Part shown: piece by piece, positions 9,853-49,772 of the stretch | Numbering within the stretch: position 1 is the first letter of the stretch | Layout: every line of letters begins with the position of its first letter | Source: Minisyncoccia bacterium | GTDB lineage: Bacteria; Patescibacteriota; Minisyncoccia; Phycocordibacterales; UBA918 | Length of the DNA stretch: 64,000 nucleotides | Direction of reading: 5' to 3' | NCBI GenBank assembly: GCA_046293175.1 | Contig: JBKBPM010000001.1 | Coordinates: 593,408 to 657,407 of the forward strand | Notes under the pieces: generated by a model | The model's database searches: none | What the model was told of the DNA's origin: nothing | What the model saw: the letters and a program-made list of their open reading frames with translations, nothing else | Made by a program: the position numbers and the translations under genes

Positions 9853-10896
9853 ATGCCTGTATTTGTACCGTCTACCACAAAACGCCGTCCTCGTAATTAT
9901 CTTCGTCTGTTTATTTGGACGAGCACCTTTCTTTGCACCCTCGCAGGCGTGGCTTTGATTGCGGTTTTGACGCAAAAGACTGCCACTCTAACGAACATCC
10001 AAACAAACGTCCCTATAAGCGACACCGCCCTGCCACCGCTGCCGGTTGGTGTTGACCCTGTAGCCAAAGTAATTGAAGAAAACCCTGCCGTCGATGCGTA
10101 CATGTCTGCGTTTGTGGCGAGCAACCACACAAAACCTACTATTGGGGATAGTTGGTTTGATCGTGTCTTAGCCAAACTCACTGAACATGACTGGTACCAA
10201 AACCTCGCTACCCCAGCGACACGCATTCTCATTATTCAATCAGGTGAGCGACATGAAGAAATTGCCAAAAACTTTGCACGTATTCTCCGGTGGACCCCCG
10301 AAGAAAAAAGTATTTTTACTGAACGACTGATGGATGAAGTACCGCCAGTAAAAGACGGCAAGCTCTATCCTGGCCGATACGTTGTTTCGAGTGATGCTGG
10401 ACCAGAAGAAGTAGCAGTAGCAGTGGCTGATCGTTTTAATGCAGAAGTTCGGACCCGTTACACTGATGAGGTAGCCAAAATCCTGCCGCTTAAAGAGGCA
10501 CTTATTATTGCTTCTTTGATTGAACGAGAAGCCTACGACTTTAATGACATGCGCTACATCTCCGGCGTGATTTGGAATCGTTTGTTTATTGATATGAAGC
10601 TGCAGATTGATGCCACGCTCCAGTACGTCCGCGGCGAGCAAAGTGCGGCCGCTGGTGGTCGCTGGTGGCCTGTCCCGAGGGCGCAAGATAAATTTATTAA
10701 ATCACCGTACAACACCTACCAAAATGTTGGCTTGCCCCCAGCACCGATTGCAAACCCGTCTATAGACGCTATTATCGCCGCCCTCAATCCCCGTGACACC
10801 GATTGTCTTTTCTACTATCACACTGATGATGGCACCTTCTACTGCAACGCCACCTACGAAGCACACGTAGCTGGTATCAAAGCGCATTTGAAATAA
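9853..10896 (+). CDS. mltG: Endolytic murein transglycosylase MltG (YceG family)
   Basis: N-terminal TM and a YceG-like domain (…LIIASLIEREA…; …SPYNTYQNVGLPPAPIANPS…). Confidence 0.8.
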   Translation: MPVFVPSTTKRRPRNYLRLFIWTSTFLCTLAGVALIAVLTQKTATLTNIQTNVPISDTALPPLPVGVDPVAKVIEENPAVDAYMSAFVASNHTKPTIGDSWFDRVLAKLTEHDWYQNLATPATRILIIQSGERHEEIAKNFARILRWTPEEKSIFTERLMDEVPPVKDGKLYPGRYVVSSDAGPEEVAVAVADRFNAEVRTRYTDEVAKILPLKEALIIASLIEREAYDFNDMRYISGVIWNRLFIDMKLQIDATLQYVRGEQSAAAGGRWWPVPRAQDKFIKSPYNTYQNVGLPPAPIANPSIDAIIAALNPRDTDCLFYYHTDDGTFYCNATYEAHVAGIKAHLK

Positions 10897-10921: not shown

Positions 10922-11365
10922 TTATTTTGTGGCATCATTAACTAAATACTGCAGATCTATTTGACCAAGTTTGCCAGCCGTAAAATCAGACCAGACACCA
11001 ACCGGCCTCATGATCCGCGTATCATGCATATTTACCCAATTCACTGTGGCGAGTTCGTGTGCATGTGTTGGCGACTGTCCTCGATTTCGGAAATCAGCTG
11101 CATTATCAATCCAAAACAAAAACTCTACCACGTGTTTGCTATTGTCCTGCGTAAAATTATGAATATAGAGTAGTGCGCCAACAATAGGTGTTATACCTAG
11201 TTCTTCTTCCAGTTCACGGACTAGACCAGCCTTGATATCCTCACCCCATTCGAGATGCCCACCTGGCAATGCCAAAAACCCTTCTTTCCCTACATGCTCA
11301 ACTACCAATAGCTCACCTCTATCTATAATGATGCCCCGACAACGAATTTCAAATGTCTTGTCCAT
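10922..11365 (-). CDS. NUDIX hydrolase
   Basis: Nudix box GGHLEWGEDIKAGLVRELEEELGI. Confidence 0.8.
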   Translation of the reverse strand: MDKTFEIRCRGIIIDRGELLVVEHVGKEGFLALPGGHLEWGEDIKAGLVRELEEELGITPIVGALLYIHNFTQDNSKHVVEFLFWIDNAADFRNRGQSPTHAHELATVNWVNMHDTRIMRPVGVWSDFTAGKLGQIDLQYLVNDATK

Positions 11366-11380
11366 GTGTTTGATGATACC

Positions 11381-11743
11381 CTATTGCCATAACGCCAACC
11401 ACACCCCAATGTAATGCACCACCACATACAGGAAGAAGAGGTAACCAAGCACACCAACAATGAGTGTGAGCGCAAGGTAATTAATAATTTCATTACGCCG
11501 ACGTTTGGCTTCATCAATGGTACAGATACCTTTTTTGCGGGTTAGGTAATAATAAAGAGAACCAAGTAGCGCCAGTAGACCAACTCCACGAAATGCCCAC
11601 TTGTAATCTCCATAGAGAGTATCAGCGAGTGATGAGGCAAAACTAGCGCTCGCAATACCAAGGAGCACCAAAATAACCGGCGATAAACAACATAATGAGG
11701 CTAGTAGTACCGGGACACTTGAGATCTTAAAAATATCTTTCAT
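11381..11743 (-). CDS. Small membrane protein with a CC motif. It is the last gene of the trx-ccdA/msrAB operon.
   Basis: 120 aa with three or four TM helices and an SLCCLSPV motif in TM1. It is tightly spaced after the msrAB fusion gene. Confidence 0.4.
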   Translation of the reverse strand: MKDIFKISSVPVLLASLCCLSPVILVLLGIASASFASSLADTLYGDYKWAFRGVGLLALLGSLYYYLTRKKGICTIDEAKRRRNEIINYLALTLIVGVLGYLFFLYVVVHYIGVWLALWQ

Positions 11744-11752
11744 ATATAGTTA

Positions 11753-13603
11753 TTATACGGCAGACAGCCACAAACCGTAGCCAGCCGCTTCCATGTCAGC
11801 TAGTGGAATAAACCGGAGAGCAGCACCATTCATACAGTAGCGCATTCCTCCACGATCAGTCGGACCGTCCGGAAAGACGTGTCCGAGATGTGAATCCGCA
11901 AATCGTGACCGAACTTCTGTCCGAGTTGAAAAGAGCTTTTTATCTTCATGTAGGGTCACGGCAGTGTCATTGATAGGACGAACAAATGACGGCCACCCCG
12001 TGCCTGAATTATACTTGTCACGCGATAAGAATAATGGTTCACCAGAAACCACATCGACATAAATCCCCGGTTCATAATTTTTATCTAGTTCACTGGTACC
12101 TGCACGCTCAGTACTATCCTCCTGTGTCACCCGATACTCAATATCAGACAATTGCTGACGTAAGATATCGTCACTTGGCTTTACATAATTGTTCCAGCTA
12201 TCGGCAGTAAATGGTGTTGGCATAGTATTTGTAGTTACGGTTACTTCAGGGACGGTAGAATACTCAAACGTGTTTGCACTACTCCCCCAGACTCCTTCAT
12301 AAAACTTTGTCCGTCCTGATGCAGCTCGGTAGTAATTATACCGAACCGGATTCTTCTTGGCGTAATCTTGATGATATTCCTCGGCGACATAAAACATTGG
12401 TCGTGGCAGGATAGGTACAGTTATTGGTTTTGCTAATTTCCCCGACTTAGCTACGGCTTGTATAACAGCAGTGGCTATCTCCTTTTCTTCTTCTGTACCG
12501 TAATAGACTGCTGGAGCATAGGCCGCACCCCGATCATAAAACGAGCCTTCGCCATCGGTTGGGTCACCATGTTTGAGAATATGCTCAACCAGGTTTCCAT
12601 ACGACACTACCGTCGGATCATACGTCACCTCCACCACCTCACGATGACCACCTTGATAATAATCATCATATGTCGGATCAATCGTGTTCCCTCCCGCAAA
12701 ACCAGAGACAACAGCGATGACTCCAGGAACTTTTTCGAGATCGTGTTCAACACACCAAAAACAGCCGTTGGCCAATAACGCCGTTGCTGGAGTAACATCA
12801 ATTACTTTTGTATTGGTAGACACTGGCTGTGTATCAGCTGATTCCTGAAACGCTGAATCAGCGGGTACCGACGGTGCAAACTGCTCAAGCAATCCCTCTT
12901 CGAATTGAATGGTGGCTCCATAGCCGCCATCAAGAATCTTGGATTCAATCATTTTGTCAACACCTGAGATAATCGCTAAACCAACAAGAATTAAGAGGAT
13001 ACCCAACCCTTGCTTAATCATCGACGCGGTTGCAAAGTGACCGAGTATTCGATTGATGAGCTGTTGTCCGAAGTACGCTATAAGAAGCAATACCAAAACC
13101 AATCCTAGTACAAAGGCTCCTAGGTATAGTAATCCTATAGCCAGAGTAGCCGGCAGCACGGTGGCAATGATGTAAAGATAAGTTGGACTACAAGTCGAAA
13201 AAACGGGACCAAGCGCCAAGCCCATCATGACATCACCAGAGACGTTATTCTTCTGATACCCCTGGCCAACTGCTCGGTTACTCGTTCGCGAAAGTGTTGC
13301 CACTAATGGAATACGACCCCATGCTGTTGGGAATACTAATGTTAACCCAAGAAGCACTAACACCCCGCCTGAGAAACCTGTCCAAAAACTCGCTGGAATG
13401 GTGATAAGTAGCGTCGACACCTTGAGTAGTAAGGTAAAGACTATAACCGAAATTCCTAAGGTCCCAATCACGATGATTGACCGTCGTGAAAGCCCTCGCG
13501 CACCAGGCTCACTTGCACCAATTACCACTGGCAAGAGTGGTAAGATGCACGGTGCTAATACTGTAAGCACTCCAGCTAAGAATGAAATTAAAAGTAATGA
13601 CAT
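11753..13603 (-). CDS. msrAB: Tri-domain fusion: CcdA/DsbD-like membrane electron-transfer domain, MsrA, and MsrB (extracytoplasmic methionine sulfoxide reductase)
   Basis: N-terminal six-TM CcdA-like domain with Cys in TM1 (LAPCILP) and TM4 (FSTCSP). MsrA motif GCFWCVE. MsrB motif with GWPSF…RYCMNGAAL. Confidence 0.8.
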
Positions 13604-13606
13604 GAG

Positions 13607-14215
13607 TTATTGAACCTGGGCAACAATACTCGCAAGGGTTGAACCACCACTCCACTTCTTGATAAGTTTACCACTCGCATCCACTTGCACGAGTGTATGC
13701 TGCGTCGTGACACCATACTGCTGCTTCATAGCTGCCGAATTGTCATAATCTACTTCAAGAATCGTTAGTCCGGCTGGAATCGCTTCAAGATTGGCTTTGA
13801 TATTCCCATCAAGGGCACGACAACTTGGACACCATGATGCTTTAAAGAATAGGACGACGTCGCCAGTGTTTGCCATCGCTAGTTTACTCACTTCGTAGGG
13901 TGCATATTCACCCACCTTCTTCATAGCTTCGTCGCCTGACATAGCTTGATCTTCTTTTTTCATCATGACTTCTTCTCTGGACATTGCTTCGGCTTTATTC
14001 ATATCATCATTCATCATCTCGCCGTCTTTCTCCATCATCATCTTTTCATCCATAGCCTTTTGCTCCATCATCGCTTTCTCCTCCATCGTAGCCTTTTCCA
14101 TGGCCGCTTTTTCGGCCATCATGGCAGCATCATCAGTTTTACCCATCGACAGGACATACCAGCCACCAGTAAGTACCACTCCCGCAACAACAAATCCCAC
14201 TATTGCTTTTTGCAT
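13607..14215 (-). CDS. Membrane-anchored thioredoxin-like protein (WCPSC) with an extremely Met-rich low-complexity linker
   Basis: N-terminal TM, an M/E/K-rich stretch of about 75 aa (MMAEKAAMEKATMEEKAMMEQKAMDEKMMMEK…), and a Trx fold with a WCPSC active site. It sits immediately upstream of the ccdA-msrAB gene. Confidence 0.7.
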   Translation of the reverse strand: MQKAIVGFVVAGVVLTGGWYVLSMGKTDDAAMMAEKAAMEKATMEEKAMMEQKAMDEKMMMEKDGEMMNDDMNKAEAMSREEVMMKKEDQAMSGDEAMKKVGEYAPYEVSKLAMANTGDVVLFFKASWCPSCRALDGNIKANLEAIPAGLTILEVDYDNSAAMKQQYGVTTQHTLVQVDASGKLIKKWSGGSTLASIVAQVQ

Positions 14216-14246
14216 AAAATTACCAAAATAAACGGTTATGGGTATA

Positions 14247-14284
14247 GTATAGTCGACTTTACATTTATGTAAAGTCGACTATAC
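14247..14284. promoter_or_regulatory. Perfect 18-bp-arm palindrome, a candidate operator, upstream of the trx-msrAB operon
   Basis: TATAGTCGACTTTACATT / TATGTAAAGTCGACTATA at 14247-14284. This is 32-70 nt upstream of the trx start and just downstream of the stop of 14299..14658. Confidence 0.45.
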
Positions 14285-14298
14285 ATTCGCTTTGGGGA

Positions 14299-14658
14299 TT
14301 ACTGCCGATCTAGGTAGAGTCGAGCGAGGAGCTTTGTTGAGACCATCACGGCCAATACGACTGGTATCCACGGATCTATTTCGTGAGCAAGACCTTGCAA
14401 TACAAGTGCCAACATCAATACCAACATACCAGCCACATAGGCGACCCGCCCTGATTGGGATTTGATATTCACTTCCCGCTCATCACTCGCTGTCTCAGAA
14501 ACAATTAATCCTGCCCAAATAAGCAAGAGAACTGTCACCATCACAAGCGCCACCATCTCACCCATCATCGGCATCCAAAATGGTATGAAATCTGCCAATG
14601 CTAAAAGAAAGAATGTAATGACTAATGCGAGCGTGGTAAACAAAAATGATTTATGCAT
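14299..14658 (-). CDS. Small membrane protein that partners with the upstream XRE regulator
   Basis: 119 aa with four TM helices. Its start is 2 nt after the stop of the HTH gene. Confidence 0.4.
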   Translation of the reverse strand: MHKSFLFTTLALVITFFLLALADFIPFWMPMMGEMVALVMVTVLLLIWAGLIVSETASDEREVNIKSQSGRVAYVAGMLVLMLALVLQGLAHEIDPWIPVVLAVMVSTKLLARLYLDRQ

Positions 14659-14659
14659 A

Positions 14660-14860
14660 TTATTTTATGGTGAACATGTCCTCAACAGTCACGTTAAAGA
14701 CGCGAGCTATCTTAAGTGCGAGTAAGACTGATGGAGTATAGTTCCCTTTTTCGATTGATATGATGGTCTGTCTTGTCACACCAAGAGCCACTGCTAATTC
14801 TTCTTGGGTCATAGCAGACTTAGTGCGATATTCGTTGACTCGGTTGTGTACCGTCTCCAT
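14660..14860 (-). CDS. XRE-family helix-turn-helix transcriptional regulator
   Basis: MTQEELAVALGVTRQTIISIEKGNYTPSVLLALKIARVF is a classic Cro/C1 HTH. Confidence 0.8.
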   Translation of the reverse strand: METVHNRVNEYRTKSAMTQEELAVALGVTRQTIISIEKGNYTPSVLLALKIARVFNVTVEDMFTIK

Positions 14861-16344: not shown

Positions 16345-18114
16345 TCACTGCATGCTTCGTTCTTGGAGCTCGCGGATATAGGCTTGCAGCCGCTCCACGG
16401 CTTCTGTCCGTTCGAAGATGTACTGAAACAAATCAACGCGCACCGCTTCGATTTCGTCCTGAAGCTGTTTATCGGTGAGCACCTGCTCCCGTAGTGCTGC
16501 GATAGTTTCGTCGCGCTTTTGCACGAGTGTATTGAGACGGTTCACCTCCTTGGTTTTTTCCTCTACCAGCACAGACAGCGCGTCGATTTCTTTTTTCTTA
16601 TCGTCGAGAGCTTCCAAAAGTCCGGCAACAACATTGTCTGCGAGCATCGCTGCTTGCGAGACGATGGTGCGATTCGCCGCCTTAAGGTCTTTCAAGGTAG
16701 TCGCGAGCTTGCGTTCGAGGGTATCAATCCGTCGCTTGCGCAACGTACCAATACGACGAGCTTGTCTGAGCTCCCCTTTCATGTCCTCAGCCACAGGCCC
16801 GCCGCTATTTGATGGTCCCACCACAGTTTGCACTACCGGCGGGGCAATCATTTTTTCATGAAGCGCTGCGGCCAACAGTTGCCCTGTCGCAAAAAGCACA
16901 CCAACCAACTCACCAAGCTGCTTGATACGTTCGATCTGGTAAGTTTCCCGCTCGTACTGTTCGCGATCAATTTGCTGGCGACGGCGATTCGCAGCAGCAA
17001 CTTCATGGTCCTTTGTCGACAACTGGTTACGGAGAACCTGGTTTGTAGCTTCAACGTGTTGCAGTCGAGTCTCGAGATTCTCAACCCGAGCTGCTACCAC
17101 CACCAACGCCTTCTTTTCTCTTTCGAGCGTCGACAGCTTATGTCGTAGCAGTTGATTTTCGAGCCGCAAACCACTCTCATCAACGACCACCGGTTGCTGT
17201 GCGACCGGAGGTTCTACTCGCTTTACTGGTGGCGATACCACAGCGCGTCGCACTGGTTCCACCTTTGGTGGTGGCGCCACCACCACTGGTGGCGGTGATG
17301 GAGCCGGCGTCGGTGCTTGCGGAGTCATGGCCTTCGGCTGGGCCGGCGGTGGTACCGTCGGTTTGGCCGGAGGTATTAGTGGCGGCTTGACCACTTCTTT
17401 AACCACCGGCGTCACTGGTGGCTTTGGTGCAGGTGGCGCTTTTGGCGCCACCGGCATTTTGACCACCGATTTGGCCGCTGGTGCCGGTTGCGGCAGAGCT
17501 CTTACCGCACGCGGTTTCGGCAGTTTGACCATCATCATAGCATCTTCGAGTGGTGTGGGCGGCTTTACTTGCTTACCTCGACTCTTAGCCACATAGATTG
17601 ACGGTCTAGCATCTTCTTCACGAAACAACAATCCACTCGCCTCAGACATCTGCTTGAGAATAATAGAGGCATCGCTCGCTTCAGTTGTTTCAAGGAGCTG
17701 CACCAACTGGTACAAGCCAGTCCGATAGAGTTGGACCAATTCGGTGCCAAGCGGCTTGTCTCCTGGATGAAGATCCCGCACTAGGGTGGCAAGCAAAGAT
17801 GGATCACTTGTCCCGAGGGACGAAGCGTACTTCTTCTCAGTATGAAGCCAATTCGGCGGCTTTGCCTTGGCAGGACGACTGAGAATCGCCAACACTTCTG
17901 CAAGATGTGAGACTGCCGAAACGGGCACCAGAAGTGACTTCGCCTTCGCCTCAGGTACCTTGATAATGTTGCCAGTACCAAGATGAAGGGTAACCATGCG
18001 GATATTTTCACCAAACACCTTCTCGGTCTTAGTCTCTCCGACCGTGCAGATGCCATGGCTACCGTACGTGACTTTTGCCCCTTGCGAAAAGGAGACATTA
18101 GCTGATTCATTCAT
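16345..18114 (-). CDS. CarD/CdnL-type RNAP-interacting N-domain fused to a Pro/Ala/Lys-rich linker and a long coiled-coil C-terminus
   Basis: Likely start is MNESANVSFSQGAKVTYGSHGICTVGE… (CarD_TRCF-like). It then carries about 90 aa of PxxP/APK repeats and about 270 aa of heptad-rich Q/E/R/L sequence. Confidence 0.65.
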   Translation of the reverse strand: MNESANVSFSQGAKVTYGSHGICTVGETKTEKVFGENIRMVTLHLGTGNIIKVPEAKAKSLLVPVSAVSHLAEVLAILSRPAKAKPPNWLHTEKKYASSLGTSDPSLLATLVRDLHPGDKPLGTELVQLYRTGLYQLVQLLETTEASDASIILKQMSEASGLLFREEDARPSIYVAKSRGKQVKPPTPLEDAMMMVKLPKPRAVRALPQPAPAAKSVVKMPVAPKAPPAPKPPVTPVVKEVVKPPLIPPAKPTVPPPAQPKAMTPQAPTPAPSPPPVVVAPPPKVEPVRRAVVSPPVKRVEPPVAQQPVVVDESGLRLENQLLRHKLSTLEREKKALVVVAARVENLETRLQHVEATNQVLRNQLSTKDHEVAAANRRRQQIDREQYERETYQIERIKQLGELVGVLFATGQLLAAALHEKMIAPPVVQTVVGPSNSGGPVAEDMKGELRQARRIGTLRKRRIDTLERKLATTLKDLKAANRTIVSQAAMLADNVVAGLLEALDDKKKEIDALSVLVEEKTKEVNRLNTLVQKRDETIAALREQVLTDKQLQDEIEAVRVDLFQYIFERTEAVERLQAYIRELQERSMQ

Positions 18115-18224
18115 GATCGTGCCTCCTTGCAACGATGTTTGTAGATGGGCTTCTAATCGCCAAGTATGCCAAAGTACTCCTTGTAAAGCAAGGCAGTAAA
18201 CAACCATCGGACTTAGTTCACCCT

Positions 18225-37292: not shown

Positions 37293-38861
37293 TTATTCTG
37301 TTACAGCAAACTCAAACATCATTCCTGCTTCGAGATGTTCAGCAATGTGACAATGCGCCATCCATTCGCCGGGGTTTGTGGTGTCGAGTAGGATATCGAC
37401 ATACTGTCCAGCTGGTACCATCACCGTGTCTTTCCAAACCAAGTTGTCGTTTGTTGTTCCATTTTCATTGACTACCAAGAATCGCTGACCGTGGAAGTGA
37501 ATTGGGTGTTGCATTGGATGAGCAGAATTTGCGTCATTAGTGATACGGACCTTCACCTTGTCACCAGATTTGAAGCTCCACGCAATATCCATATTCGTCT
37601 GCCCGGTTGCCTTGTCGGTGATCTTCCACTTTGTCATATCCTTGGTCGCCATCTGGTTCATCATGGCCATGTCAGTATCCTCCCATTCAATGCCATCTTT
37701 ACTCACCGTATTAGCCATCATTCCTCCCATCATTGATCCATCGGGCATCCTGTGTCCACCCATGCCTCCACTCATACCGCCCATCATGTCGATGGTGAGA
37801 TTGAGTTCTTTATCGACTGGTTTGGCGAGGTATTCCCGATACGGGTCAATGCTTGCTTTCGCAACTTCGTTGGTGCGAAGCGTGCCAAAGATATCTCCGT
37901 AGTATGGAGACGCAACCCCTCCCGAGACAGTAACTTTGCCAAGTTCATACGTTTTTTCAGGCGTGCTATGGAGAAGTGCATACGTTCCTTCGTTAGCAAA
38001 TAGCACTTCCACAACTACTCGCTCAGATGGTCCGAGAATCACTGAGTCTTTCCATTCTTCTCGCTCCGTCGCCCCAGCATCTCCGCCGACTAATTTCAGC
38101 TTCGCACCCTTAATACTGAAGTTGAATGGTCGCGCGTTTGCGGCGTTTGTGAGATAGAAGCGAATCACTTCACCCTCTGTTGCTGTGAGCTCGTAATCAG
38201 TCTCACCATTTACGAGCATCACGTTTCCGTAACGACCCATGAGGGTACGATCTGCTTCCTTTTTGCTCAGATTTATCTTTCCGTTCTCAATGAGAATGTC
38301 GTCCAGAATAAGTGGTACCTCGCGGTTTACTTCATTCCAATACTTCTCATCGGTAGCTACCACAAGATAGTTCCCGTATAAGCCGAGCTCCTGTTCCAAG
38401 TCTTCACGAACATGCGGGTGGTACCAGTACATTCCGGCGTCAGGGAATTTCAGTTTGTACGAGAACGTCTCACCCGGTTTCATCTCCTCTTGAGTCGACT
38501 GTGAACCATCAAACTCATTGTCCATGCGCACGCCGTGCGAGTGGAGAAGTGTGTTCATGTCGGTACCATTCTTGAAGTTGATGGTCACCTCTGCACCTTG
38601 CGGTACTTTGATTAATGGTCCGGGTATTGAGCCGTTGTATGCGAGCATTTTGTATGACACGCCATTGATGTTTTTTTCGACGTAGCTGGCAGTGAGGTCA
38701 TAGGTGTCACCATTTTTAAGTTCAACAGTCTCTGATGCTTTTGCAGGTTCAGCTTTTGTAAGGGCAGTGCTCGCACCAGGTATAGTTCCTCCTTTTGATA
38801 GCAGAATGCCACCAACGACAAGAACTACGCCGAGCACTACCGCAATAAGTGTTTTATTCAT
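37293..38861 (-). CDS. Multicopper oxidase (CueO/laccase-like) with a Met/Gly-rich insert
   Basis: Copper ligand motifs WYHPH, HPIHFHG, and HCHIAEHLEAGMM. Met-rich segment MMGGMSGGMGGHRMPDGSMMGGMM. Confidence 0.85.
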   Translation of the reverse strand: MNKTLIAVVLGVVLVVGGILLSKGGTIPGASTALTKAEPAKASETVELKNGDTYDLTASYVEKNINGVSYKMLAYNGSIPGPLIKVPQGAEVTINFKNGTDMNTLLHSHGVRMDNEFDGSQSTQEEMKPGETFSYKLKFPDAGMYWYHPHVREDLEQELGLYGNYLVVATDEKYWNEVNREVPLILDDILIENGKINLSKKEADRTLMGRYGNVMLVNGETDYELTATEGEVIRFYLTNAANARPFNFSIKGAKLKLVGGDAGATEREEWKDSVILGPSERVVVEVLFANEGTYALLHSTPEKTYELGKVTVSGGVASPYYGDIFGTLRTNEVAKASIDPYREYLAKPVDKELNLTIDMMGGMSGGMGGHRMPDGSMMGGMMANTVSKDGIEWEDTDMAMMNQMATKDMTKWKITDKATGQTNMDIAWSFKSGDKVKVRITNDANSAHPMQHPIHFHGQRFLVVNENGTTNDNLVWKDTVMVPAGQYVDILLDTTNPGEWMAHCHIAEHLEAGMMFEFAVTE

Positions 38862-42762: not shown

Positions 42763-42836
42763 TGGCTGCCCGACAAGGACTCGAACCTCGATACCTTGGA
42801 CCAAAACCAAGTGTCCTACCATTAGACGATCGGGCA
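42763..42836 (-). tRNA. tRNA-Gln (anticodon UUG), CCA encoded
   Basis: Manual fold of TGCCCGA-TC-GTCT-AATGGTA-GGAC-A-CTTGG-TTTTGGT-CCAAG-GTATC-CGAGG-TTCGAGT-CCTTG-TCGGGCA-G-CCA. Confidence 0.8.
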
Positions 42837-43112
42837 AGTGGCTCCATTTATACCATATATCGTGCCAGAAATCATCCTTAATATTGAGGAAGATTTTCTC
42901 ACCGTAATTCGAAGCGTTCTGTGGTAATTATCTGCAATATTTTGTGCGGTTTGTTTTAATATTATGCTTTTTGTAGTAAATAAACTGGGGCTGAAAATCA
43001 TTTTTTTCTAGGATGTTGCTCCAGAATTTAATATCCTTAACTACATCTTTTTTATGGTTTTCATGGATATATAAACTATAGACAAGTCTATCAAGATTGC
43101 TGTTTAAGGATT

Positions 43113-43340
43113 CTAGGAGAAACCGTTTGAAAATTTAATCATATTTGGGTCAGTGTTTCCAAAAGTGACCGATTGACCATGTCGACTTCTTTCCTTTGAT
43201 CCTTCACCCCAATATAGAGCGACACCTACAAGAAACAATTCTCGTTTACTCAATATCCCAACTTGCTGGATTGCTTTTTCGTATATGTCCTTCGTCACAG
43301 CAATACGATGAGCACGACGAGCATCACCACCGCGCTGTTG
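43113..43340 (-). pseudogene. LAGLIDADG homing-endonuclease remnant (C-terminal fragment with no proper start)
   Basis: Frame …RRAHRIAVTKDIYEKAIQQVGILSKRELFLVGVALYWGEGSKERS… has a stop immediately upstream and no N-terminal half. It sits inside an AT-rich 730-bp non-coding stretch. Confidence 0.4.
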
Positions 43341-43570
43341 GGCTGCCAGCTTTTTAGAAGATGGCTTTTGCGTTTGCTCCCTGGTAAGTTTAGTTTCTCA
43401 AAGCCGTTAAGGAAAAAGTCGACTTAGCAATTGGAACAACAGCTAGAATGTCGCTGTATGTTTTCCCTTCTCGACGGAGGTTTATAGCTTTGATTTTCAA
43501 ATTATTTTTTATTGTACAGATGTACGCCTCACTTATTTTCCTTGACTGCCTCGTACTACATGCAAAATCT

Positions 43571-45253
43571 CTATTTATTGAGCATTGCAGCCTTTATGAA
43601 AGCCGTAAAAACAGGATGTGGAGCAAGTGGTCGTGCTGTAAGTTCTGGATGGAACTGAGTTCCAAGGAAAAATGGGTGGACGGACTTCGGCAACTCAACC
43701 ATTTCCATCAGACGACCATCCGGTGAAGTGGCACCAAAGACGAGTCCAGCCGCTTCGAGGTCATCCACATACTCAGGATTCACCTCATAGCGGTGGCGGT
43801 GCCGTTCGGTCACGGTACCACTCTTGTATGCCGTGTAAGCCTGTGTCCCTTTCTTCACCACCGCATCATATGAGCCGAGGCGCATCGTGCCACCCATGTC
43901 GCTCTTCGCGAGCTTTTCGCGTTGTTCTGGCATAATACCAATGACAAGATGTTCGGCCTTAGGATCAATCTCTTCGGTTGATACACTATCGAGCTTCAGC
44001 ACATTGCGGGCATATTCGAGCACCGCCAGCTGCATACCATAACAGATACCGAAGTACGGGATTTTCTTGGTGCGTGCATATTCGATAACCTTGAGCTTGC
44101 CTTCGATACCAGTCTTGCCAAAGCCGCCCGGGACAAGGATGCCATCAAAAGCGTCGAGGTCCTTAAGTGACTTCTTGCCCGTTTCAAAATCAAGAGACGA
44201 GAGGTAGGTGATTTCCGCTTTGGTGCCAAGCTTGTACGCTGAGTACTTAAGCGCTTCAAGGACTGAGATATACACGTCTGAGAGGACAAAATCCCCCGAA
44301 CTAAAGTACTTGCCTACGACCGCGATCTTGGTTACGGACTTGGTGCTCTTTGAGCGGTTCACGAATTGCTTCCAGGCTTTGAGGTCACTCGGTTTTGGTT
44401 TGAGGCCAAGGATATCGCAGAGGGCTCCCGATACACCCTCCTTTTCGAAGTGGAGGGGAATATCGTAGATACTGCGTACATCAGGCGCTGATATGACATG
44501 TTCGGGTCGCACATTACAAAAGCGAGAAAGCTTCTCCTTACGCTTTTGATCAATTGGTTCGGTACTACGAGCGACAATCAAATCGGCAAAGACGCCAGCA
44601 CTGTTCAGCGCTCGAACAGCGGTCTGTGTTGGCTTCGTTTTCATTTCACCAATACTACCGGGTACCGGGAGGTAAGACACCATCACCACTGCCACATCCT
44701 CAGGCGCTTCGCTCTTCATCATACGGACCGCTTCAAGGAACAGGACGTTTTGGTATTCGCCGACCGTGCCACCAATTTCGGTAATGACTACATCTGCCTT
44801 GGCGGCTACTCCGGCTTTTTTGATTCGGTCAATCACCTCCAGTGGAATATCTGGCACCACCTCGACATTGCGCCCCCCGTATTCGAGATTGCGCTCCTTT
44901 TTGATGACCGAGAGATAAACACTACCTGTGGTCATGTAGTTGATGGCCGGTAGGTCGATATTGAGGAATCGTTCGTAGTTTCCCATGTCTTGGTCTGTCT
45001 CCAGACCGTCCTTAAGTACAAAACACTCACCGTGCTCGGTGGGGTTCATGGTACCAGCGTCAACATTGATGTACGGATCGATTTTGAGTGCGGTTACATT
45101 AAGACCACGACCCTGGAGTGTGAGCGCGATTGAGGATGAAGAGATCCCCTTCCCGACGCCACTCATAACCCCGCCGACGATAAAGATGTACTTGGGACGT
45201 TTCTGCTGCTTTTTGGTCGTGCCTGTCATCTTCTTGGTCGTGCGGGTGGTCAT
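43571..45253 (-). CDS. pyrG: CTP synthase
   Basis: …GGVMSGVGKGISSSSIALTLQ…, a GATase C-domain …GICYGMQLAVLEYARN…, and …GTQFHPE…. Confidence 0.9.
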   Translation of the reverse strand: MTTRTTKKMTGTTKKQQKRPKYIFIVGGVMSGVGKGISSSSIALTLQGRGLNVTALKIDPYINVDAGTMNPTEHGECFVLKDGLETDQDMGNYERFLNIDLPAINYMTTGSVYLSVIKKERNLEYGGRNVEVVPDIPLEVIDRIKKAGVAAKADVVITEIGGTVGEYQNVLFLEAVRMMKSEAPEDVAVVMVSYLPVPGSIGEMKTKPTQTAVRALNSAGVFADLIVARSTEPIDQKRKEKLSRFCNVRPEHVISAPDVRSIYDIPLHFEKEGVSGALCDILGLKPKPSDLKAWKQFVNRSKSTKSVTKIAVVGKYFSSGDFVLSDVYISVLEALKYSAYKLGTKAEITYLSSLDFETGKKSLKDLDAFDGILVPGGFGKTGIEGKLKVIEYARTKKIPYFGICYGMQLAVLEYARNVLKLDSVSTEEIDPKAEHLVIGIMPEQREKLAKSDMGGTMRLGSYDAVVKKGTQAYTAYKSGTVTERHRHRYEVNPEYVDDLEAAGLVFGATSPDGRLMEMVELPKSVHPFFLGTQFHPELTARPLAPHPVFTAFIKAAMLNK

Positions 45254-45275
45254 AGTGATTATTTTATTTAGTGGA

Positions 45276-46196
45276 TTAAACGCGCAAGTAGCGGGTGATG
45301 GCCAGGATACTTGAAATAAGTCCAAGCGCCACACCGATACCGACGATGGTCAAAAAGAGGGTGCCGAAGTTGTTGACAAAGTAGACATAAAGATCGAATT
45401 CAAAGAATTCTGCGGTAGCAGGACCAATCCAAATCATAATTGGATAAAGGATGGCGAGCGCGAGGATACCCGAGATAACTCCGTACATAACACCTTGAAG
45501 CATAAACGGGCCACGAATGAAGGCGTTGCTTGCACCCACGAGACGCATCACAGAAATTTCTTCACGAGCAGTATAAATGGCGAGGCGAATGGTATTAAAG
45601 GTAATAAGAATAGCGGCAATGATGAGGACCACCATCGTGATAGTAGTTGCTCGCTCCACCGCGTTCACAATCTTGGTCAATGTTTCGATTGATTCTTTGT
45701 TGTTGGCGTAGTTTACCTCATCTATGAGGGCAGTCTCGGTGGTCTCCATCGCTTTTTGCTCATCGAGGAACCTCGCAATACTTTCGTACTGGGAGGTGTT
45801 TTTCGCCCGGATGGCAATGGTGGCACCAAGTGGGTTATCACCAAGTTCTTCGAGTGCCTGCATCGCAACACTATCGTTTTGGTTCTTGAGGCGATATTCC
45901 GTCAGAGCATCTTCGCGGGAGGTGTAGCGAACTTCGGCGACGTCAGGCAAGGCCTCGATTTTGGTCTTGAGCGCATTAATCGCGGTCTCATCGGCAGTAG
46001 TCACAAAGTACACATTGATATCAACTTTGGACTGGATATTGTTCAAAGAAACGGTGAGGAGCTGATCGAGGAGCATGGTTGTACCAATGACAAACAGCGC
46101 TACGGTAATCACAAAAATAGACGCCAGAGACACGTAGGCACTACGCCAAAAACCAATAAACCCAGACCGCACGATTCGTCGAAGACTTGTGATCAT
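45276..46196 (-). CDS. ftsX: FtsX-family permease
   Basis: Four-TM FtsX architecture with a periplasmic domain, adjacent to ftsE. Confidence 0.8.
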   Translation of the reverse strand: MITSLRRIVRSGFIGFWRSAYVSLASIFVITVALFVIGTTMLLDQLLTVSLNNIQSKVDINVYFVTTADETAINALKTKIEALPDVAEVRYTSREDALTEYRLKNQNDSVAMQALEELGDNPLGATIAIRAKNTSQYESIARFLDEQKAMETTETALIDEVNYANNKESIETLTKIVNAVERATTITMVVLIIAAILITFNTIRLAIYTAREEISVMRLVGASNAFIRGPFMLQGVMYGVISGILALAILYPIMIWIGPATAEFFEFDLYVYFVNNFGTLFLTIVGIGVALGLISSILAITRYLRV

Positions 46197-46204
46197 ACAC
46201 CAAT

Positions 46205-46888
46205 TTATAGCACGTACTTACCACTTTCGTCGTCCCGAATTATCCGACCACCATCCATAGTGATAACGCGGCGACCGAGTTCATCAATCACTCCCTTGTT
46301 GTGGGTGGTCATCACGACCGTTGTTCCAAGGTCGTTAATCTTTTTGAGAATCTGGACTACTTCGTAGGTAGCAATCGGGTCGAGATTCCCGGTTGGTTCA
46401 TCCGCAATGATGATGTCTGGCTGATTTACAATCGCCCGAGCAATCGCGACACGCTGCTTCTCTCCGCCGGAGAGTTCTCCTGGGAAATTCCACGCCTTAT
46501 CAGCGAGGTCGACAAGCGAGAGGGCCTGGGGGACATTCTCGGCTATTTCTTCGTCACTGCGCCCATTGGCCTCCATTGCAAACGCAATATTCTCGTAGGC
46601 AGTCTTGTTAGGGAGAAGCTTAAAATCCTGGAACACGGTACCAATCTTGCGACGGTAGTGAGGGAGCTTTGATCTCGGGATACGATGGATATCAAGTGAT
46701 TCAAAAAAAACGTTGCCGTGAGTTGGCTTATCTTCAGCAATAATCATCTTGAGGAGGGTAGTCTTACCGGCACCCGAGTGACCGACAATTGAGACAAATT
46801 CTTTTGGATCTATCTGGAAGGTGATTTCTTCAAGCGCTGCTTGCCGTCCATCATTGTAGAGCTTTGAGACTTTATCAAAATAAATCAT
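46205..46888 (-). CDS. ftsE: Cell-division ABC ATPase FtsE
   Basis: Walker A GHSGAGKTT, ABC signature LSGGEKQRVAIARA, Walker B IIIADEPTGNLD. Confidence 0.9.
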   Translation of the reverse strand: MIYFDKVSKLYNDGRQAALEEITFQIDPKEFVSIVGHSGAGKTTLLKMIIAEDKPTHGNVFFESLDIHRIPRSKLPHYRRKIGTVFQDFKLLPNKTAYENIAFAMEANGRSDEEIAENVPQALSLVDLADKAWNFPGELSGGEKQRVAIARAIVNQPDIIIADEPTGNLDPIATYEVVQILKKINDLGTTVVMTTHNKGVIDELGRRVITMDGGRIIRDDESGKYVL

Positions 46889-46903
46889 ATAACGAATTCT
46901 ATT

Positions 46904-47776
46904 TTACGTTACTTCGCCCTTCGCGTCGAGGAAAACCTGTATATCGCCTGCTAATACTTGGTCAATTTGGCGTACTTCCACACCCGTACGGTGGTCTTTG
47001 ACTAGTTGGTAGGGGTGGAGGACATAGGAGCGAATCTGACTCCCCCATTCAATCTTGACGGTCTTCTCGACCGAAAGACCCTGCAGTTCGCGTTTGTGCT
47101 GGGCTTCGCGGAAGGCATAGAGCTTACCAGCAATAAGCGAGAGGGCGCGTTCGCGGTTCTGCTGCTGACTGCGCTCGGTGGAGACATGTACCGAGATGTT
47201 CGTCGGGATATGCGTGATACGGACGGCGGTCTCACGCTTGTTTACATTTTGACCACCAGCCCCGCCCGAACGGGCAAATGTGATCTCGAGTTCATCCTCC
47301 GGAATCGCAACAGCAGACAAATCTTCAATTGCCGGAGACACTTCCACGAGCGTAAACGAGGTCTGGCGCTTGCCATTACTATTAAACGGTGAGATGCGGA
47401 CGAGACGATGGACGCCGGATTCGTTTGCGAGCGTGCCATAGGCATTTTTGCCCGTGACTTCAATTACGACATTACGGTAGCCGCCATGGTCGTTTTCGTT
47501 ACTATCGAGTTCAGTAACATGCCAGCCGCGACTTTCGGCGTACCGCCAGTACATCTCACGGAGCATCCGAGCGAAGTCTTCGGCATCGTCCCCACCAGCT
47601 CCAGCCACAATGGTGATGATCGCTGGATTGCGGTCATACTTCCCCTCACCCGAGGCTTCGGCTTTGAGGTCTTGGAGTTCTTTGATCATCGCTTGCGCTT
47701 TCTGGCTATCCTGCCAAAAGTCTGGTTGGAGCATCGCGGCTTCAATCTCAGCGATTCGGGTAGTCGGGTCAGTCAT
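46904..47776 (-). CDS. prfB: Peptide chain release factor 2, N-terminally short, with no programmed-frameshift site
   Basis: SPF tripeptide (…[15 protein letters not shown]…), GGQ (…[11 protein letters not shown]…), and the RF-1 domain. It has 290 aa versus about 365 aa in classical RF2. Confidence 0.85.
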
Positions 47777-47859
47777 AATATGAAGAGTATAGCAAATTAA
47801 CGCGCAAGACGGAAAAGAGTGCGGGCCAGCCGCGCTCTTTTCACGATTATTCTAACTTG

Positions 47860-47932
47860 AGCCAATGCCCAGGCTTGAACTGGGGACCTGACGCTTACGA
47901 TGCGCCTGCTCTACCAACTGAGCTACATTGGC
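47860..47932 (-). tRNA. tRNA-Thr (anticodon CGU), no encoded CCA
   Basis: GCCAATG-TA-GCTC-AGTTGGTA-GAGC-A-GGCGC-ATCGTAA-GCGTC-AGGTC-CCCAG-TTCAAGC-CTGGG-CATTGGC-T. Confidence 0.8.
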
Positions 47933-48085
47933 AGTGAATACTGCGTCCCCTATAGTAGTACACCTCACATTTGATTTCAAATGGTTTTTTGGTATGATAC
48001 GTGGGCTTCGAATACCACATGCTGTGTGTACAGACAAGCAACCGGCCAAGGTGACGACGTCACACGTCGCCCTTAGTCTCCCAAA

Positions 48086-48158
48086 GCCAATGTAGCTCAG
48101 TTGGTAGAGCACATCCATGGTAAGGATGAGGTCTCCAGTTCAATCCTGGACATTGGCT
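48086..48158 (+). tRNA. tRNA-Thr (anticodon GGU), no encoded CCA
   Basis: Acceptor and D-arm are identical to the divergent tRNA-Thr(CGU). Anticodon loop is ATGGTAA. Confidence 0.8.
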
Positions 48159-48160
48159 CA

Positions 48161-48205
48161 TAAATCAAAAAACGTCCGTCAGGGCGTTTTTTGATTTATG
48201 AGCCA
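48161..48205. terminator. Long perfect palindromic terminator that includes the tRNA-Thr 3' end
   Basis: ctcataaatcaaaaaacg-tccgtcagg-cgttttttgatttatgag with 18-nt arms. Confidence 0.65.
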
Positions 48206-48370
48206 ATGTAGCAAGCCAACTGCTTGGCTTGTGTCCAAGATTGAAAGCCGCAGCTATGTTTTTTGCTTAGGTAAAGCAAAAAACTGCGAGGCGGGGTCGA
48301 GAACACTTAGTAGATTAGGAACGTAGTGAACTAATATACTTAGTGATTCGTGACCGATCCTTTCACCACT
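48206..48370. repeat. tRNA-linked repeat R1: inverted partial copy of the tRNA-Thr 3' half with a 22-nt hairpin insert, followed by a conserved core of about 85 nt
   Basis: Reverse complement of 48181-48250 reads ggctTTCAATCtTGGACA[caagccaagcagttggcttgct]ACATTGGCTCATAAATCAAAAAA, against the tRNA's CCAGTTCAATCCTGGACATTGGCTCATAAATCAAAAAA. The core gcgaggcggggtcgagaacacttagtagattaggaacgtagtgaactaatatacttagtgattcgtgacc recurs at 50758-50830. Confidence 0.55.
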
Positions 48371-48377
48371 ACTCTTT

Positions 48378-48968
48378 TTACTTCCGCTTCCAAAACACCA
48401 TCACGAGTACACCCACTACTGCCCCACTGAGATTAAAGATGAGGTCGAGCATGGCGTTGGCGTAACCACCTACCCCATTACGCTCGACAGTGACCGCAAT
48501 CAAGAACTCCATGATTTCATTAAGACCACTGATACCAAGTGAAATCATTGTAGCAACGAGCGCAACAAGAAACGTATGTCCTTTGATACCAAGTGGGGCT
48601 CGTAGTGTGTAGTACGCCATCATAGCAACGAGCCCGTAGAGATAGGTATGAACTACCTGGTCGTACTTAAGGATGTAGAAATCACCACCAAGATCGAGGA
48701 ACGGATAAATCTTGTAGGCAAAGAGCACTCCATCAACCGTCTGCACTGCCCCACCCGCCACATGCATCAGTCCCCAGATAGATAGAAGCCAGAGCATCCA
48801 GATTGGAAATTGGGTCAAGCGCAGGGTGGCAAACACCCCAGTAAAAATTGCTATAATGACTGCGACATAAATGACGAACTCAAGGTTGAGGTCACGAGCG
48901 AAGTAAATCCCACCGAGAATAAGATAGAGGGCTGAAAATGAAACGACAGGGATGAGTGATTTGGTCAT
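48378..48968 (-). CDS. Polytopic membrane protein (DUF2238/YjdF-like, tentative)
   Basis: 196 aa with about six TM helices. Confidence 0.4.
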   Translation of the reverse strand: MTKSLIPVVSFSALYLILGGIYFARDLNLEFVIYVAVIIAIFTGVFATLRLTQFPIWMLWLLSIWGLMHVAGGAVQTVDGVLFAYKIYPFLDLGGDFYILKYDQVVHTYLYGLVAMMAYYTLRAPLGIKGHTFLVALVATMISLGISGLNEIMEFLIAVTVERNGVGGYANAMLDLIFNLSGAVVGVLVMVFWKRK

Positions 48969-49108
48969 ATAAAATTATAACACCAGAAAGGACTTAAACA
49001 TTACATGTTCAGTACCCCAATTGGCTTGATTGATGCGCTTCGCTTTCAATCCAGCTCAATCGGGCTTCGAGTCCCGCCCATATGTGTCCCACACATATGG
49101 GCATCGAT

Positions 49109-49140
49109 CGCTCACGAAAAAAGCCAGCTTTGGGCTGACT
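49109..49140. terminator. Hairpin terminator 3' of tRNA-Asp
   Basis: aaaaaagccagc-tttgg-gctgactttttt with 12-nt arms and one mismatch. Confidence 0.55.
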
Positions 49141-49150
49141 TTTTTCTTTG

Positions 49151-49224
49151 CGCGGTCGAAGGGACTCGAACCCTCGGCCTCTTCCGTGACAGGGAAGCGC
49201 TCTAACCAGCTGAGCTACGACCGC
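49151..49224 (-). tRNA. tRNA-Asp (anticodon GUC)
   Basis: GCGGTCG-TA-GCTC-AGCTGGTTA-GAGC-G-CTTCC-CTGTCAC-GGAAG-AGGCC-GAGGG-TTCGAGT-CCCTT-CGACCGC-G. A promoter TTGCCA-N17-TATAAG sits immediately upstream (reverse complement of about 49233-49262). Confidence 0.8.
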
Positions 49225-49304
49225 AGATATGCCTTATACTGCCACAAAGTAACAGTGGCAAGAGTATATACACTTTTCGTAAAAAGGGCAATATCTTGCG
49301 TGAT

Positions 49305-49632
49305 GTCGATGAGAGAGAACGATCCTGACTGGATCTGTAGACCTTTTCTGTCGTTCATTTCGCGTTGCTCACAAACGTCTAGAAAAGGTCATCCTTCCCT
49401 CACAAGCAGTCCCCCGGACTGCTTTCTATCAACAGCCGAACACTGCCATCACTGGCAATGTTCTTTGTGTCGATGGGAGGGAACGAATCTTACAGATTCA
49501 GTACACCTTTTCTGTCATTTGTTTCGCGTTGCTCACAAACGTCTAGAAAAGGTCATCGTTCCCTCACAAGCAGTCCCCCGGACTGCTTTCCATCAACAGC
49601 CGAACACTGCCATCACTGGCAATGTTCTTTGT
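49305..49632. repeat. Two tandem 164-bp repeat units, each starting with a copy of the 3' end of the adjacent tRNA(CAT)
   Basis: Units 49305-49468 and 49469-49632 are about 90% identical. Each begins gtcgatgRgagRgaacgatcct, which is the reverse complement of the tRNA T-arm plus acceptor 3' strand. They contain internal hairpins (ACCTTTTCT…AGAAAAGGT; GCAGTCCcccGGACTGC). ORF-track entries 49030..49686 and 49458..49664 are artefacts of this repeat. Confidence 0.7.
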
Positions 49633-49705
49633 GTCGATGGGAGGGAACGATCCTCCGACCTTAGCTTTATGAGTGCTACGCTCTAACCAACTGAGCTACA
49701 TCGAC
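49632..49705 (-). tRNA. tRNA-Met or tRNA-Ile2 (anticodon CAU) with an unusual T-loop (ATCGTTC)
   Basis: GTCGATG-TA-GCTC-AGTTGGTTA-GAGC-G-TAGCA-CTCATAA-AGCTA-AGGTC-GGAGG-ATCGTTC-CCTCC-CATCGAC-A, with G1:C72 paired. Confidence 0.65.
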
Positions 49706-49772
49706 ATGACTCCTTGCGAAGTGCTTGGAGTATACCAGAAGATTAAAATTATTCTAGTCCTTACTTCCCCGC

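Follow-up and report, generated by a model that had tools for sequence, protein, structure and literature searches.

The closest described counterparts of the locus considered here are the CcdA1/2–Etrx1/2–MsrAB2 system of Streptococcus pneumoniae and the loci of Streptococcus gordonii and Fusobacterium nucleatum in which genes for thioredoxin (Trx), CcdA and MsrAB likewise occur together (PMC3914529, PMC7034828, PMC9239216, PMC13488963). A second precedent is MrpX of Azospira suillum, an exported peptide consisting of 20% Met and 44% charged residues that is co-transcribed with a periplasmic methionine sulfoxide (MetSO) reductase, and that is oxidized by hypochlorite and re-reduced (PMC4436054). 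A 64,000-nucleotide stretch from a Minisyncoccia bacterium (contig JBKBPM010000001.1, positions 593,408 to 657,407; hereafter the window, with all coordinates counted from its first letter) contains a minus-strand gene cluster with resemblances to both. A gene for a membrane-anchored thioredoxin (13607–14215, 202 amino acids [aa]) is followed after 3 nt by a gene for a fusion of CcdA, MsrA and MsrB (11753–13603, 616 aa) and, after a further 9 nt, by a gene for a MerT-like protein with a CC motif (11381–11743, 120 aa, 3 transmembrane [TM] helices). These open reading frames (ORFs) had been grouped into a methionine sulfoxide repair operon by an earlier annotation of the stretch, here called the original prediction, and both their positions and the assignment to the Candidate Phyla Radiation (CPR, or Patescibacteria) hold. 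On the basis of the domains that we identified, the cysteines that are conserved, the topology predicted from the sequence, the order of the genes, the conservation of an operator and the composition of a linker, the locus appears to be a patescibacterial cell-surface MetSO repair module that follows a logic of CcdA to extracytoplasmic Trx to MsrAB, with a proposed oxidant sink and proposed regulation by an XRE-family protein, a reading to which we assign a probability of about 70%.

The 2 catalytic domains of the fusion are recognized by both Pfam and NCBIfam. The MsrA domain (aa 273–425, 12329–12787) matches PMSR (PF01625) over aa 274–423 with E=3e-47 and TIGR00401 with E=8e-40, above cut-off, and the MsrB domain (aa 475–612, 11768–12181) matches SelR (PF01641) over aa 485–600 with E=1e-42 and TIGR00357 with E=7e-54, also above cut-off. 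The window sequence alone gives a weak match of the N-terminal domain (aa 1–235, 12899–13603) to DsbD_TM (PF02683) over aa 4–213, with E=4e-3 and below the gathering score. A profile of 18 homologues matches the solved structure of Thermus CcdA (5vkv) over residues 5–224 with E=2.7e-6, as well as MsrAB crystal structures, and PF02683, PF01625 and PF01641 are precomputed together on most fusion homologues. Because the homologues carry PF02683, the profile matches 5vkv and the conduit cysteines are invariant, the CcdA identity of the N-terminal domain can be taken as secured at the family level, and with it the claim that CcdA is joined in frame to MsrA-MsrB in one polypeptide. All 5 cysteines of the fusion (C19, C138, C281, C284 and C590) are invariant in an alignment of 82 sequences. 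The first 2 are the conduit pair; C19 lies in an APCILP motif in TM1 and C138 in a TCSPTY motif in TM4. An AlphaFold2 (AF2) model of the fusion (mean predicted local distance difference test [pLDDT] score 83) shows helix breaks at residues 15–20 and 138–139, that is, at C19 and C138, and the 3 domains are separated by flexible segments at aa 244–269, where pLDDT is low, and aa 452–461.

The Msr active sites are conserved among the full-length homologues described below. The MsrA motif GCFWC occurs in 110/110 of them, the domain has structural matches to MsrA chains, and by analogy with CFWC-type MsrA enzymes C281 is the putative catalytic and C284 the putative resolving cysteine. In MsrB the catalytic C590 lies in an RYCMN motif, and the canonical resolving position is occupied by Thr or Ser (G[TS]GWPSF in 109/110 homologues, GTGWPSF in the window, GCGWPSF in 0/110), for which reason the domain is assigned from its sequence to the one-Cys type. 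The sulfenate of such an enzyme must be reduced directly; this is a trait of the subclass and is not needed for membership in the family. The MsrB domain lacks the Zn-binding CxxC pairs and is closest to the exported MsrB domain of Neisseria PilB, with 62% identity and a TM-score of 0.98. All 4 motifs are retained in 107 of the 110 homologues.

Searching databases with the 616-aa protein gave 2274 matches, and among the best 120 of these, 110 are full-length fusions (580–670 aa, aligned over the whole query at 46–85% identity). They are drawn from NCBI, JGI, ENA and Logan assemblies, are labeled merely “MsrA” or “MsrB” in public data, and come from sources named as Patescibacteria, Parcubacteria, Paceibacterota or plain “bacterium”. 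The junction between CcdA and MsrA is conserved across them as DKK.E..ILDSGYGATIQ.E. One could suspect that the 616-aa ORF is an artefact of assembly or gene calling that merged separate ccdA and msrAB genes, given that CcdA plus MsrAB occur as separate proteins in related loci (L096 and L097, for example) and that the Pfam DsbD_TM match of the window sequence is weak when taken alone. The reading frame is unbroken in the window, however, and the 110 homologues are independent of one another and keep the junction down to 46% identity. So many full-length homologues with conserved cysteines and domain architecture exclude such an artefact, to which we would give a vanishingly small chance. A profile scan of genome contigs through the generic GCFWC pattern recovered, for the most part, ordinary MsrAB of Proteobacteria and other phyla, with L001 the only full-length fusion among the matches listed.

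No description of a CcdA-MsrAB or CcdA/DsbD-Msr fusion was found in the searchable literature, in agreement with the original prediction, nor was one found there for a Met-rich thioredoxin tether or for the TGTAAAG-N4-CTTTACA operator discussed below. The table of MsrAB fusions in a 2026 review contains no CcdA-MsrAB (PMC13488963). The fusion is a widespread form of a known pathway that seems not to have been described before, abundant in public data and unremarked. It is one of several fusions of CcdA to other domains.

The direction in which the Msr domains face was assessed from charge distribution. CcdA proteins have an N-out/C-out orientation. Six TM helices are predicted in the CcdA domain, and averaged over the 82 sequences, loops 1, 3 and 5 contain 3.1, 5.2 and 3.0 Lys plus Arg residues (11.3 together), compared with 0 at the N-terminus and in loops 2 and 4, with a net acidic segment after TM6. 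By this positive-inside count the domain is predicted to be N-out/C-out, which would therefore place MsrA-MsrB outside the membrane, as had been proposed. Independent support comes from a sister genome, L083, in which an MsrAB 90% identical to that of the window occupies the same syntenic position and bears a plain N-in signal anchor, and the resemblance of the MsrB domain to the exported PilB MsrB also counts toward an extracytoplasmic placement. The thioredoxin is anchored by an N-in, Lys-flanked TM.

This thioredoxin consists of a signal-anchor TM (aa 5–24), a Met-rich linker (aa 26–99, 13919–14140 on the minus strand) and a Trx fold. Pfam Thioredoxin (PF00085) matches aa 116–201 with E=1e-10, the WCPSC active site is at aa 128–132, and AF2 models the domain (aa 100–202) with pLDDT above 95. 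WCP[ST]C is found in 672 Trx homologues, and the W-C-P-x-C active site is invariant. Met makes up 18 of the 74 linker residues (24%), versus 1.9% of the Trx domain and 2.5% of the long ORFs of the window. The enrichment noticed by the original prediction is therefore real, at about every fourth residue and not every third as first stated. Lys, Glu and Asp account for 43% of the linker, His and Cys are absent, and “AMMEK”-like units recur in a roughly heptad pattern. AF2 predicts a single long helix for aa 28–68 (pLDDT 73–81) and disorder for aa 69–100.

All orthologous loci examined have a Met-rich segment, its composition kept and its sequence unalignable. With this recurrence, neither of the outcomes that the original prediction had named as refuting it was observed. 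Across 97 TM-anchored homologues of the Trx domain, the Met fraction of the linker is at least 15% in 53, 8–15% in 9 and below 8% in 35, and the Met-poor linkers are rich in Asn, Gln, Thr and Glu instead and of similar length. Pooled, the 53 Met-rich linkers contain 22% Met, 18% Glu, 13% Lys, 9% Asp, 9% Ala and 0% His or Cys. Their methionines occur in 189 MM doublets and at 208 spacings of 5–7 residues, with MxM found 3 times and MxxM never, so that the geometry of the known Cu(I) “Mets motif” is absent.

To place these proteins in context we compared 2 samples of gene neighborhoods, one of loci whose fusion protein is 47–85% identical to that of the window, and one of 80 metagenome loci retrieved by their thioredoxin and classified with purpose-built hidden Markov models (HMMs). 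The metagenome sample was ranked by similarity to the Met-rich query and is hence biased toward Met-rich linkers. The constant unit that emerges comprises an XRE-family helix-turn-helix (HTH) protein of 66–97 aa, a 4-TM protein of about 117–128 aa, the TM-anchored Trx and CcdA. In about 90 loci, essentially without exception, ccdA directly follows trx. What follows or is fused to CcdA varies; the CcdA-MsrA-MsrB fusion fills this slot in about 18 loci, and other loci have stand-alone CcdA followed by a separate MsrAB, a CcdA-Redoxin-Thioredoxin_10 protein of DipZ architecture (often followed by separate MsrB, MsrA and MsrB genes), CcdA-Redoxin plus MsrAB, CcdA-DUF3179 plus MsrAB, or CcdA alone with no Msr gene within 1.5 kb. 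Msr is fused or adjacent in more than 20 cassette loci. The window protein is itself not DipZ-like, as it has PMSR and SelR in place of Redoxin and Thioredoxin_10; in sister lineages the cassette slot is taken by DipZ-like paralogues.

A search with the CcdA domain across 1.84 billion cluster representatives gave 999 matches, 191 of them at E<=1e-30, which marks a compact subfamily. The best 150 of the 999 include 85 stand-alone CcdA proteins, 43 CcdA-Redoxin proteins (34 of them DipZ-like), 6 CcdA-DUF3179 and 4 CcdA-Msr. CcdA-MsrAB thus appears as one outcome of recurrent fusion to extracytoplasmic partners in this CcdA lineage, DipZ-like CcdA-Redoxin being the most common. Because the CcdA-MsrAB fusions collapse to few clusters at 50% identity, sequence clustering suggests one or few origins for them.

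Several further arrangements were seen at these loci. Among close relatives, with MsrAB up to 90% identical, a single TM or a TM plus a DM13 domain (“electron transfer DM13”) takes the place of CcdA as the anchor of MsrAB, examples being the protein at L083 5001–6185 and proteins P0021, P0022, P0024, P0043 and P0093; in L083 the entire HTH/4-TM/Trx/CcdA cassette is missing from the syntenic slot. The CcdA/Msr genes are often followed by genes for a VTT/DedA protein and a 480-aa class-I pyridine-nucleotide disulfide oxidoreductase (Pyr_redox_2 plus Pyr_redox_dim), a pair that replaces the MerT-like gene in L084 (5839–7924), L086 (5934–8031), L094, L096, L112, L119 and L151. This oxidoreductase could be a cytoplasmic electron feeder or belong to an unrelated module. 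CcdA-DUF3179 occupies the cassette slot in L100 (1502–3157) and is represented by P0361 and 5 other representatives, and L089 has a separate DUF3179 gene upstream of a pair of Met-free Trx and CcdA, all of which points to DUF3179 as a possible extracytoplasmic client of the reducing pathway.

The regulatory part of the unit had not been included in the original prediction, which confined the operon to the 3 ORFs named above. In the window, the XRE-family HTH regulator (14660–14860, minus strand, 66 aa, Pfam HTH_3 E=5e-15) and the 4-TM protein (14299–14658, minus strand, 119 aa, without a Pfam or NCBIfam family) lie directly upstream of trx, and the XRE gene directly precedes the 4-TM gene and trx both in the loci 47–85% identical to the window and in about 60 of the 80 metagenome loci. 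The 4-TM gene is always paired with the HTH gene, with a gap of 1 nt between stop and start in the window. Pfam and NCBIfam searches with the 4-TM protein gave no significant match. One homologue had a precomputed tag, “DUF2178 weak”, which was not reproduced; DUF2178 was not found in the literature, and we rejected this assignment. In an alignment of 60 sequences of the 4-TM family, the predicted outer end of TM1 carries an invariant W28-M29 and an almost invariant P30, and a DERE motif is conserved after TM2. As a speculation, the protein might be a sensor of envelope stress, possibly of Met oxidation, or a partner of the regulator.

The 83 bp that separate the 4-TM gene from trx contain a double palindromic operator (14246–14285), which overlaps a promoter-like site of trx. 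On the minus strand it reads TGTATAG-TCGA-CTTTACA, taaa, TGTAAAG-TCGA-CTATACt, and contains a perfect inverted repeat of 18+18 nt (14247–14284, 38 bp) made up of 2 adjacent sites of the TGTAAAG-N4-CTTTACA type. The promoter-like site (−35 TTTACA, 16 nt, −10 TATACT) is located 30 nt upstream of the trx ATG. The trx operator is the sole match to TGTAAAG-N4-CTTTACA in the 64-kb window. The operator is present at the equivalent position in 58 of 63 related loci, across distant Patescibacteria, and 84 sites with at most 1 mismatch were counted in 394 kb where 0.06 would be expected. Most of the 84 lie upstream of trx (67) and about 11 upstream of the HTH gene; 2 perfect sites directly precede msrA genes that do not adjoin trx-ccdA, other genes lying in between (L119 and L151). 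This comparison gives strong evidence that the operator is conserved and that the Trx-CcdA module is regulated together with Msr genes. From its co-occurrence with the operator, the XRE protein is the proposed repressor that would bind it.

We infer the direction and the partners of electron transfer in the CcdA to Trx to Msr steps from the streptococcal, Neisseria and Fusobacterium systems and from principles of the DsbD family. Cytoplasmic thioredoxin would reduce C19/C138 of CcdA, from which electrons would move outward to WCPSC in the anchored Trx, and Trx would in turn regenerate MsrA from its C281-C284 disulfide and MsrB from its C590 sulfenate. MsrA would then reduce Met-S-SO and MsrB Met-R-SO on surface proteins and plausibly on the Trx tether too. 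After TM6, a flexible linker of about 35 residues would hold MsrAB outside the cell, and the fusion of MsrAB to CcdA would serve mainly as a membrane anchor and, as the cell has no periplasm, would keep the acceptor close to its conduit. The Met/Lys/Glu/Asp-rich tether, with its helix of about 40 residues and its disordered portion, would act as a spacer and also as an MrpX-like sacrificial sink for oxidants that is recycled by the adjacent Msr. Under this scheme the XRE protein would repress through the double operator placed over the −35/−10 of trx, and the 4-TM partner would relieve repression upon oxidative stress at the envelope.

An alternative electron route would have CcdA directly reduce the attached MsrA, in the way that DsbD-beta reduces its gamma domain and DipZ its Trx-like domain, with Trx serving other clients. 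It is in keeping with this route that a Redoxin or Trx-like acceptor is the commonest C-terminal partner of CcdA (43 of 56 long representatives) and that trx is present with or without a nearby Msr. The flexible CcdA/MsrA linker is neutral on the question. MsrA does not have a Trx fold, however, and to our knowledge all characterized acceptors of CcdA or DsbD are Trx-like; moreover, a one-Cys MsrB still needs a thiol reductant, and the DipZ-like loci keep a separate Trx as well, so that the presence of Trx is not explained by a missing acceptor. We therefore hold direct reduction of MsrA to be improbable and retain the route through the anchored Trx.

Several observations weigh against the proposed scheme as a whole. 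A motif search found no cytoplasmic Trx or TrxB in the window, and the fused MsrA might in principle be reduced by CcdA itself. The pairing of repressor and operator rests on co-occurrence, and no operator is found upstream of the HTH gene itself in the window. As to the sink, in the Met-rich-biased sample the median Met fraction of the linker is 0.195 where Msr is fused, 0.19 where it is separate and 0.23 where no Msr is nearby (p=0.18), and Met-rich linkers are just as frequent beside stand-alone CcdA with no nearby Msr. Moreover, 35 of the 97 family members (36%) have no Met-rich linker, and the linker of the fusion locus L164 is Met-poor. As the Met-rich trait lacks an association with Msr, is absent in these 35 and is missing from L164, any real sink role would not be required and would not depend on the fusion. 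For the suggested sacrificial sink recycled by the fused Msr, MrpX is a strong analogue in composition, but nothing ties the linker specifically to Msr. The missing association weakens the sink idea and does not refute it, as the sample is biased and Msr genes may lie elsewhere in these genomes. In L089, a Met-free Trx stands beside stand-alone CcdA.

In a rival account, the linker is a low-complexity, charged spacer resembling a single alpha-helix that projects Trx from the membrane, without a chemical role, and Met reflects compositional drift. The AF2 model, with disorder after a single helix of about 40 residues, fits this account, as do the unalignable sequence with composition alone kept, the N/Q/T/E-rich linkers of similar length in 35/97 homologues and the lack of association between Met content and Msr in the locus. 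What drift explains poorly is that 22% Met is held across Trx domains 60–84% identical to the query, in genomes neutral in A/T, against a background of 2.5%, and that the regular periodicity of MM doublets indicates selection for Met itself. The composition also coincides with that of the experimentally validated MrpX, and the whole cassette appears to be co-regulated with Msr genes. A plain spacer is on balance unlikely, although it deserves to be taken seriously. The near-identity in composition to MrpX makes the sink hypothesis credible, and by that analogy a sacrificial role of the linker is plausible.

The protein encoded by the third ORF, downstream of the fusion, resembles MerT in its 3 TM helices, in a vicinal Cys pair in TM1 (C18-C19), in a Cys in the positively charged TM2-TM3 loop (C74) and in a weak full-length HMM similarity. 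It differs in scoring below the cut-offs (Pfam MerT, PF02411, E=4e-6, 27.2 versus 32.9 bits; NCBIfam MerT, 1e-7, 32 versus 150 bits) and in having a single loop Cys instead of a pair, and neither the window locus nor any related locus that we examined showed merP, merA or merR. It is thus not a member of MerT proper, and from its sequence it would be a distant homologue within the MerT superfamily. Its best 120 of 1588 homologues are 76–96% identical to it, far more conserved than the products of the neighboring genes, and all 3 cysteines are invariant among them. Homologues in Kaiserbacteria, Nomurabacteria and Paceibacterota are named merely “hypothetical protein”; a homologue lies at L170 4001–4375.

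The MerT-like gene follows the fusion in the window and otherwise only in L081, L085, L092 and L102, and follows TM-anchored MsrAB in L083. Most cassette loci are without it, and in the complete Kaiserbacteria genome CP060228.1 it occurs by itself, next to the gene for elongation factor G (EF-G). For these reasons we rejected the MerT-like protein as a conserved member of the system, and the original prediction, which counted it in the operon, has to be revised on this point. The gene is probably co-transcribed with its neighbors here, in a linkage that is specific to the lineage. A role as an alternative thiol conduit was prompted by L083, where MsrAB and the MerT-like gene occur with no CcdA or Trx at the locus; this idea gained no support, and CcdA and Trx may lie elsewhere in the L083 genome.

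The MerT-like protein also bears on the possibility that the linker binds Cu(I), Ag(I) or another metal and that Trx, the Met-rich segment and the MerT-like protein together serve metal detoxification or delivery. Met-rich segments are classic periplasmic ligands of Cu(I), as in CueO, CusF, PcoC and Ctr1; the DsbD-family protein ScsB was found as a suppressor of copper sensitivity; and the locus adjoins a MerT-superfamily protein with invariant cysteines. The window in addition encodes a multicopper oxidase with a Met-rich insert. Nevertheless, the 53 Met-rich linkers are devoid of His and Cys, and their Met spacing departs from the Mets-motif geometry in the way described above; the insert of the multicopper oxidase differs in composition (Gly/His/Met); the linkage of the MerT-like gene is lineage specific; and the enzymatic cargo of the operon is MsrA/MsrB, with the operator preceding msrA genes as well. 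A function in metal handling accordingly strikes us as quite unlikely, and MetSO repair remains the preferred reading of the locus. The multicopper oxidase gene (37293–38861, minus strand, 522 aa, TM-anchored, with Cu-oxidase_3, Cu-oxidase and Cu-oxidase_2 domains) is the only other Met-dense ORF in the window besides trx; its Gly/His/Met-rich insert at about aa 355–400 is a CueO-like Met-rich segment unlike the Trx linker in composition.

Of the surrounding genes, one for a NUDIX hydrolase (10922–11365, minus strand) lies 15 nt downstream of the MerT-like gene and is followed by a convergent YceG/MltG gene (9853–10896, plus strand). The NUDIX-YceG synteny is kept in L081, L083 and L084 with or without the MerT-like gene or the cassette, and because of this independence the 2 genes are probably unrelated to the Msr system. 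A 620-aa ORF at 16345–18207 (minus strand) is locally GC-rich, at 55% versus about 46%, and encodes an N-terminal domain like the CarD/TRCF RID domain, a long Pro/Ala/Val-rich region and a coiled-coil-like C-terminus. Five tRNA genes lie across 8 kb of the window (42766–50643), which contains no rRNA gene.

CPR/Patescibacteria are tiny and mostly uncultured episymbionts with minimal genomes, in which retained functions reveal the needs of their lifestyle. A dedicated and regulated delivery of reducing power to the CPR cell surface for Met repair, and perhaps for sacrificial scavenging, would bear on the tolerance of these supposedly anaerobic, fermentative organisms to oxygen and host oxidants. 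The conserved operator offers a testable marker of a regulon in a phylum with almost no known transcriptional regulation, the Met-rich tether a testable second example of the MrpX principle, and the TM-only, DM13 and DipZ-like sister architectures a natural experiment on the fusion of conduit and acceptor. A broader and more tentative extension, which may be correct but which we consider rather doubtful, is that of a surface redox regulon spanning the phylum, in which the XRE protein and the 4-TM protein with its W-M-P motif would sense envelope oxidants through Met oxidation and derepress Trx-CcdA(-X) through the operator, the tether would be a renewable MrpX-like sink, and the conduit would be wired to MsrAB, a DipZ-type redoxin or DUF3179. 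If true, the MrpX/MsrP scavenging cycle would have its first thiol-based counterpart, and membrane redox sensors would gain a new type that works through Met. In mechanism, the window locus rearranges a pathway that is well known; as leads, the CPR-wide regulon with its operator and the possible thiol-based cycle resembling that of MrpX are worth more.

Set against the systems from which we started, the locus shares with the S. pneumoniae type a CcdA conduit, a surface thioredoxin and a membrane-anchored, extracytoplasmic MsrA-MsrB in one locus, as predicted here from the genes. It differs from that type in that CcdA and MsrAB form one polypeptide, that Trx is held by a TM helix and a Met-rich tether instead of a lipid anchor, that an XRE/4-TM pair and a palindromic operator stand where a two-component system is found in S. 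pneumoniae, and that the host belongs to the CPR. Neisseria PilB is likewise an extracytoplasmic three-domain Msr fusion with a DsbD-family conduit, and its MsrB also lacks Zn-binding cysteines, but PilB fuses Trx to MsrAB and keeps the conduit separate, whereas here the conduit is fused and Trx is separate. The resolving cysteine of the PilB MsrB lies in GCGWPSF, at the position occupied by Thr in the window protein. Mycobacterium DipZ, DsbD and ScsB share a CcdA-type TM core with a C-terminal extracytoplasmic redox domain; the domain fused here is the terminal enzyme MsrA-MsrB and not a Trx-fold relay, so that CcdA-MsrAB extends the fusions of the DsbD superfamily from relay domains to a terminal enzyme. 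The likeness to MrpX and YedY (MsrP) is one of composition, with 24% Met and 43% Lys, Glu and Asp in a linker that follows an N-in anchor and is encoded in an operon with a putative extracytoplasmic MetSO reductase. MrpX is a free periplasmic peptide that is recycled by a molybdoenzyme and controlled by SigF/NrsF, whereas its proposed counterpart in Patescibacteria would be the tether of a thioredoxin, served by a thiol-based MsrAB and controlled by an XRE-type regulator.

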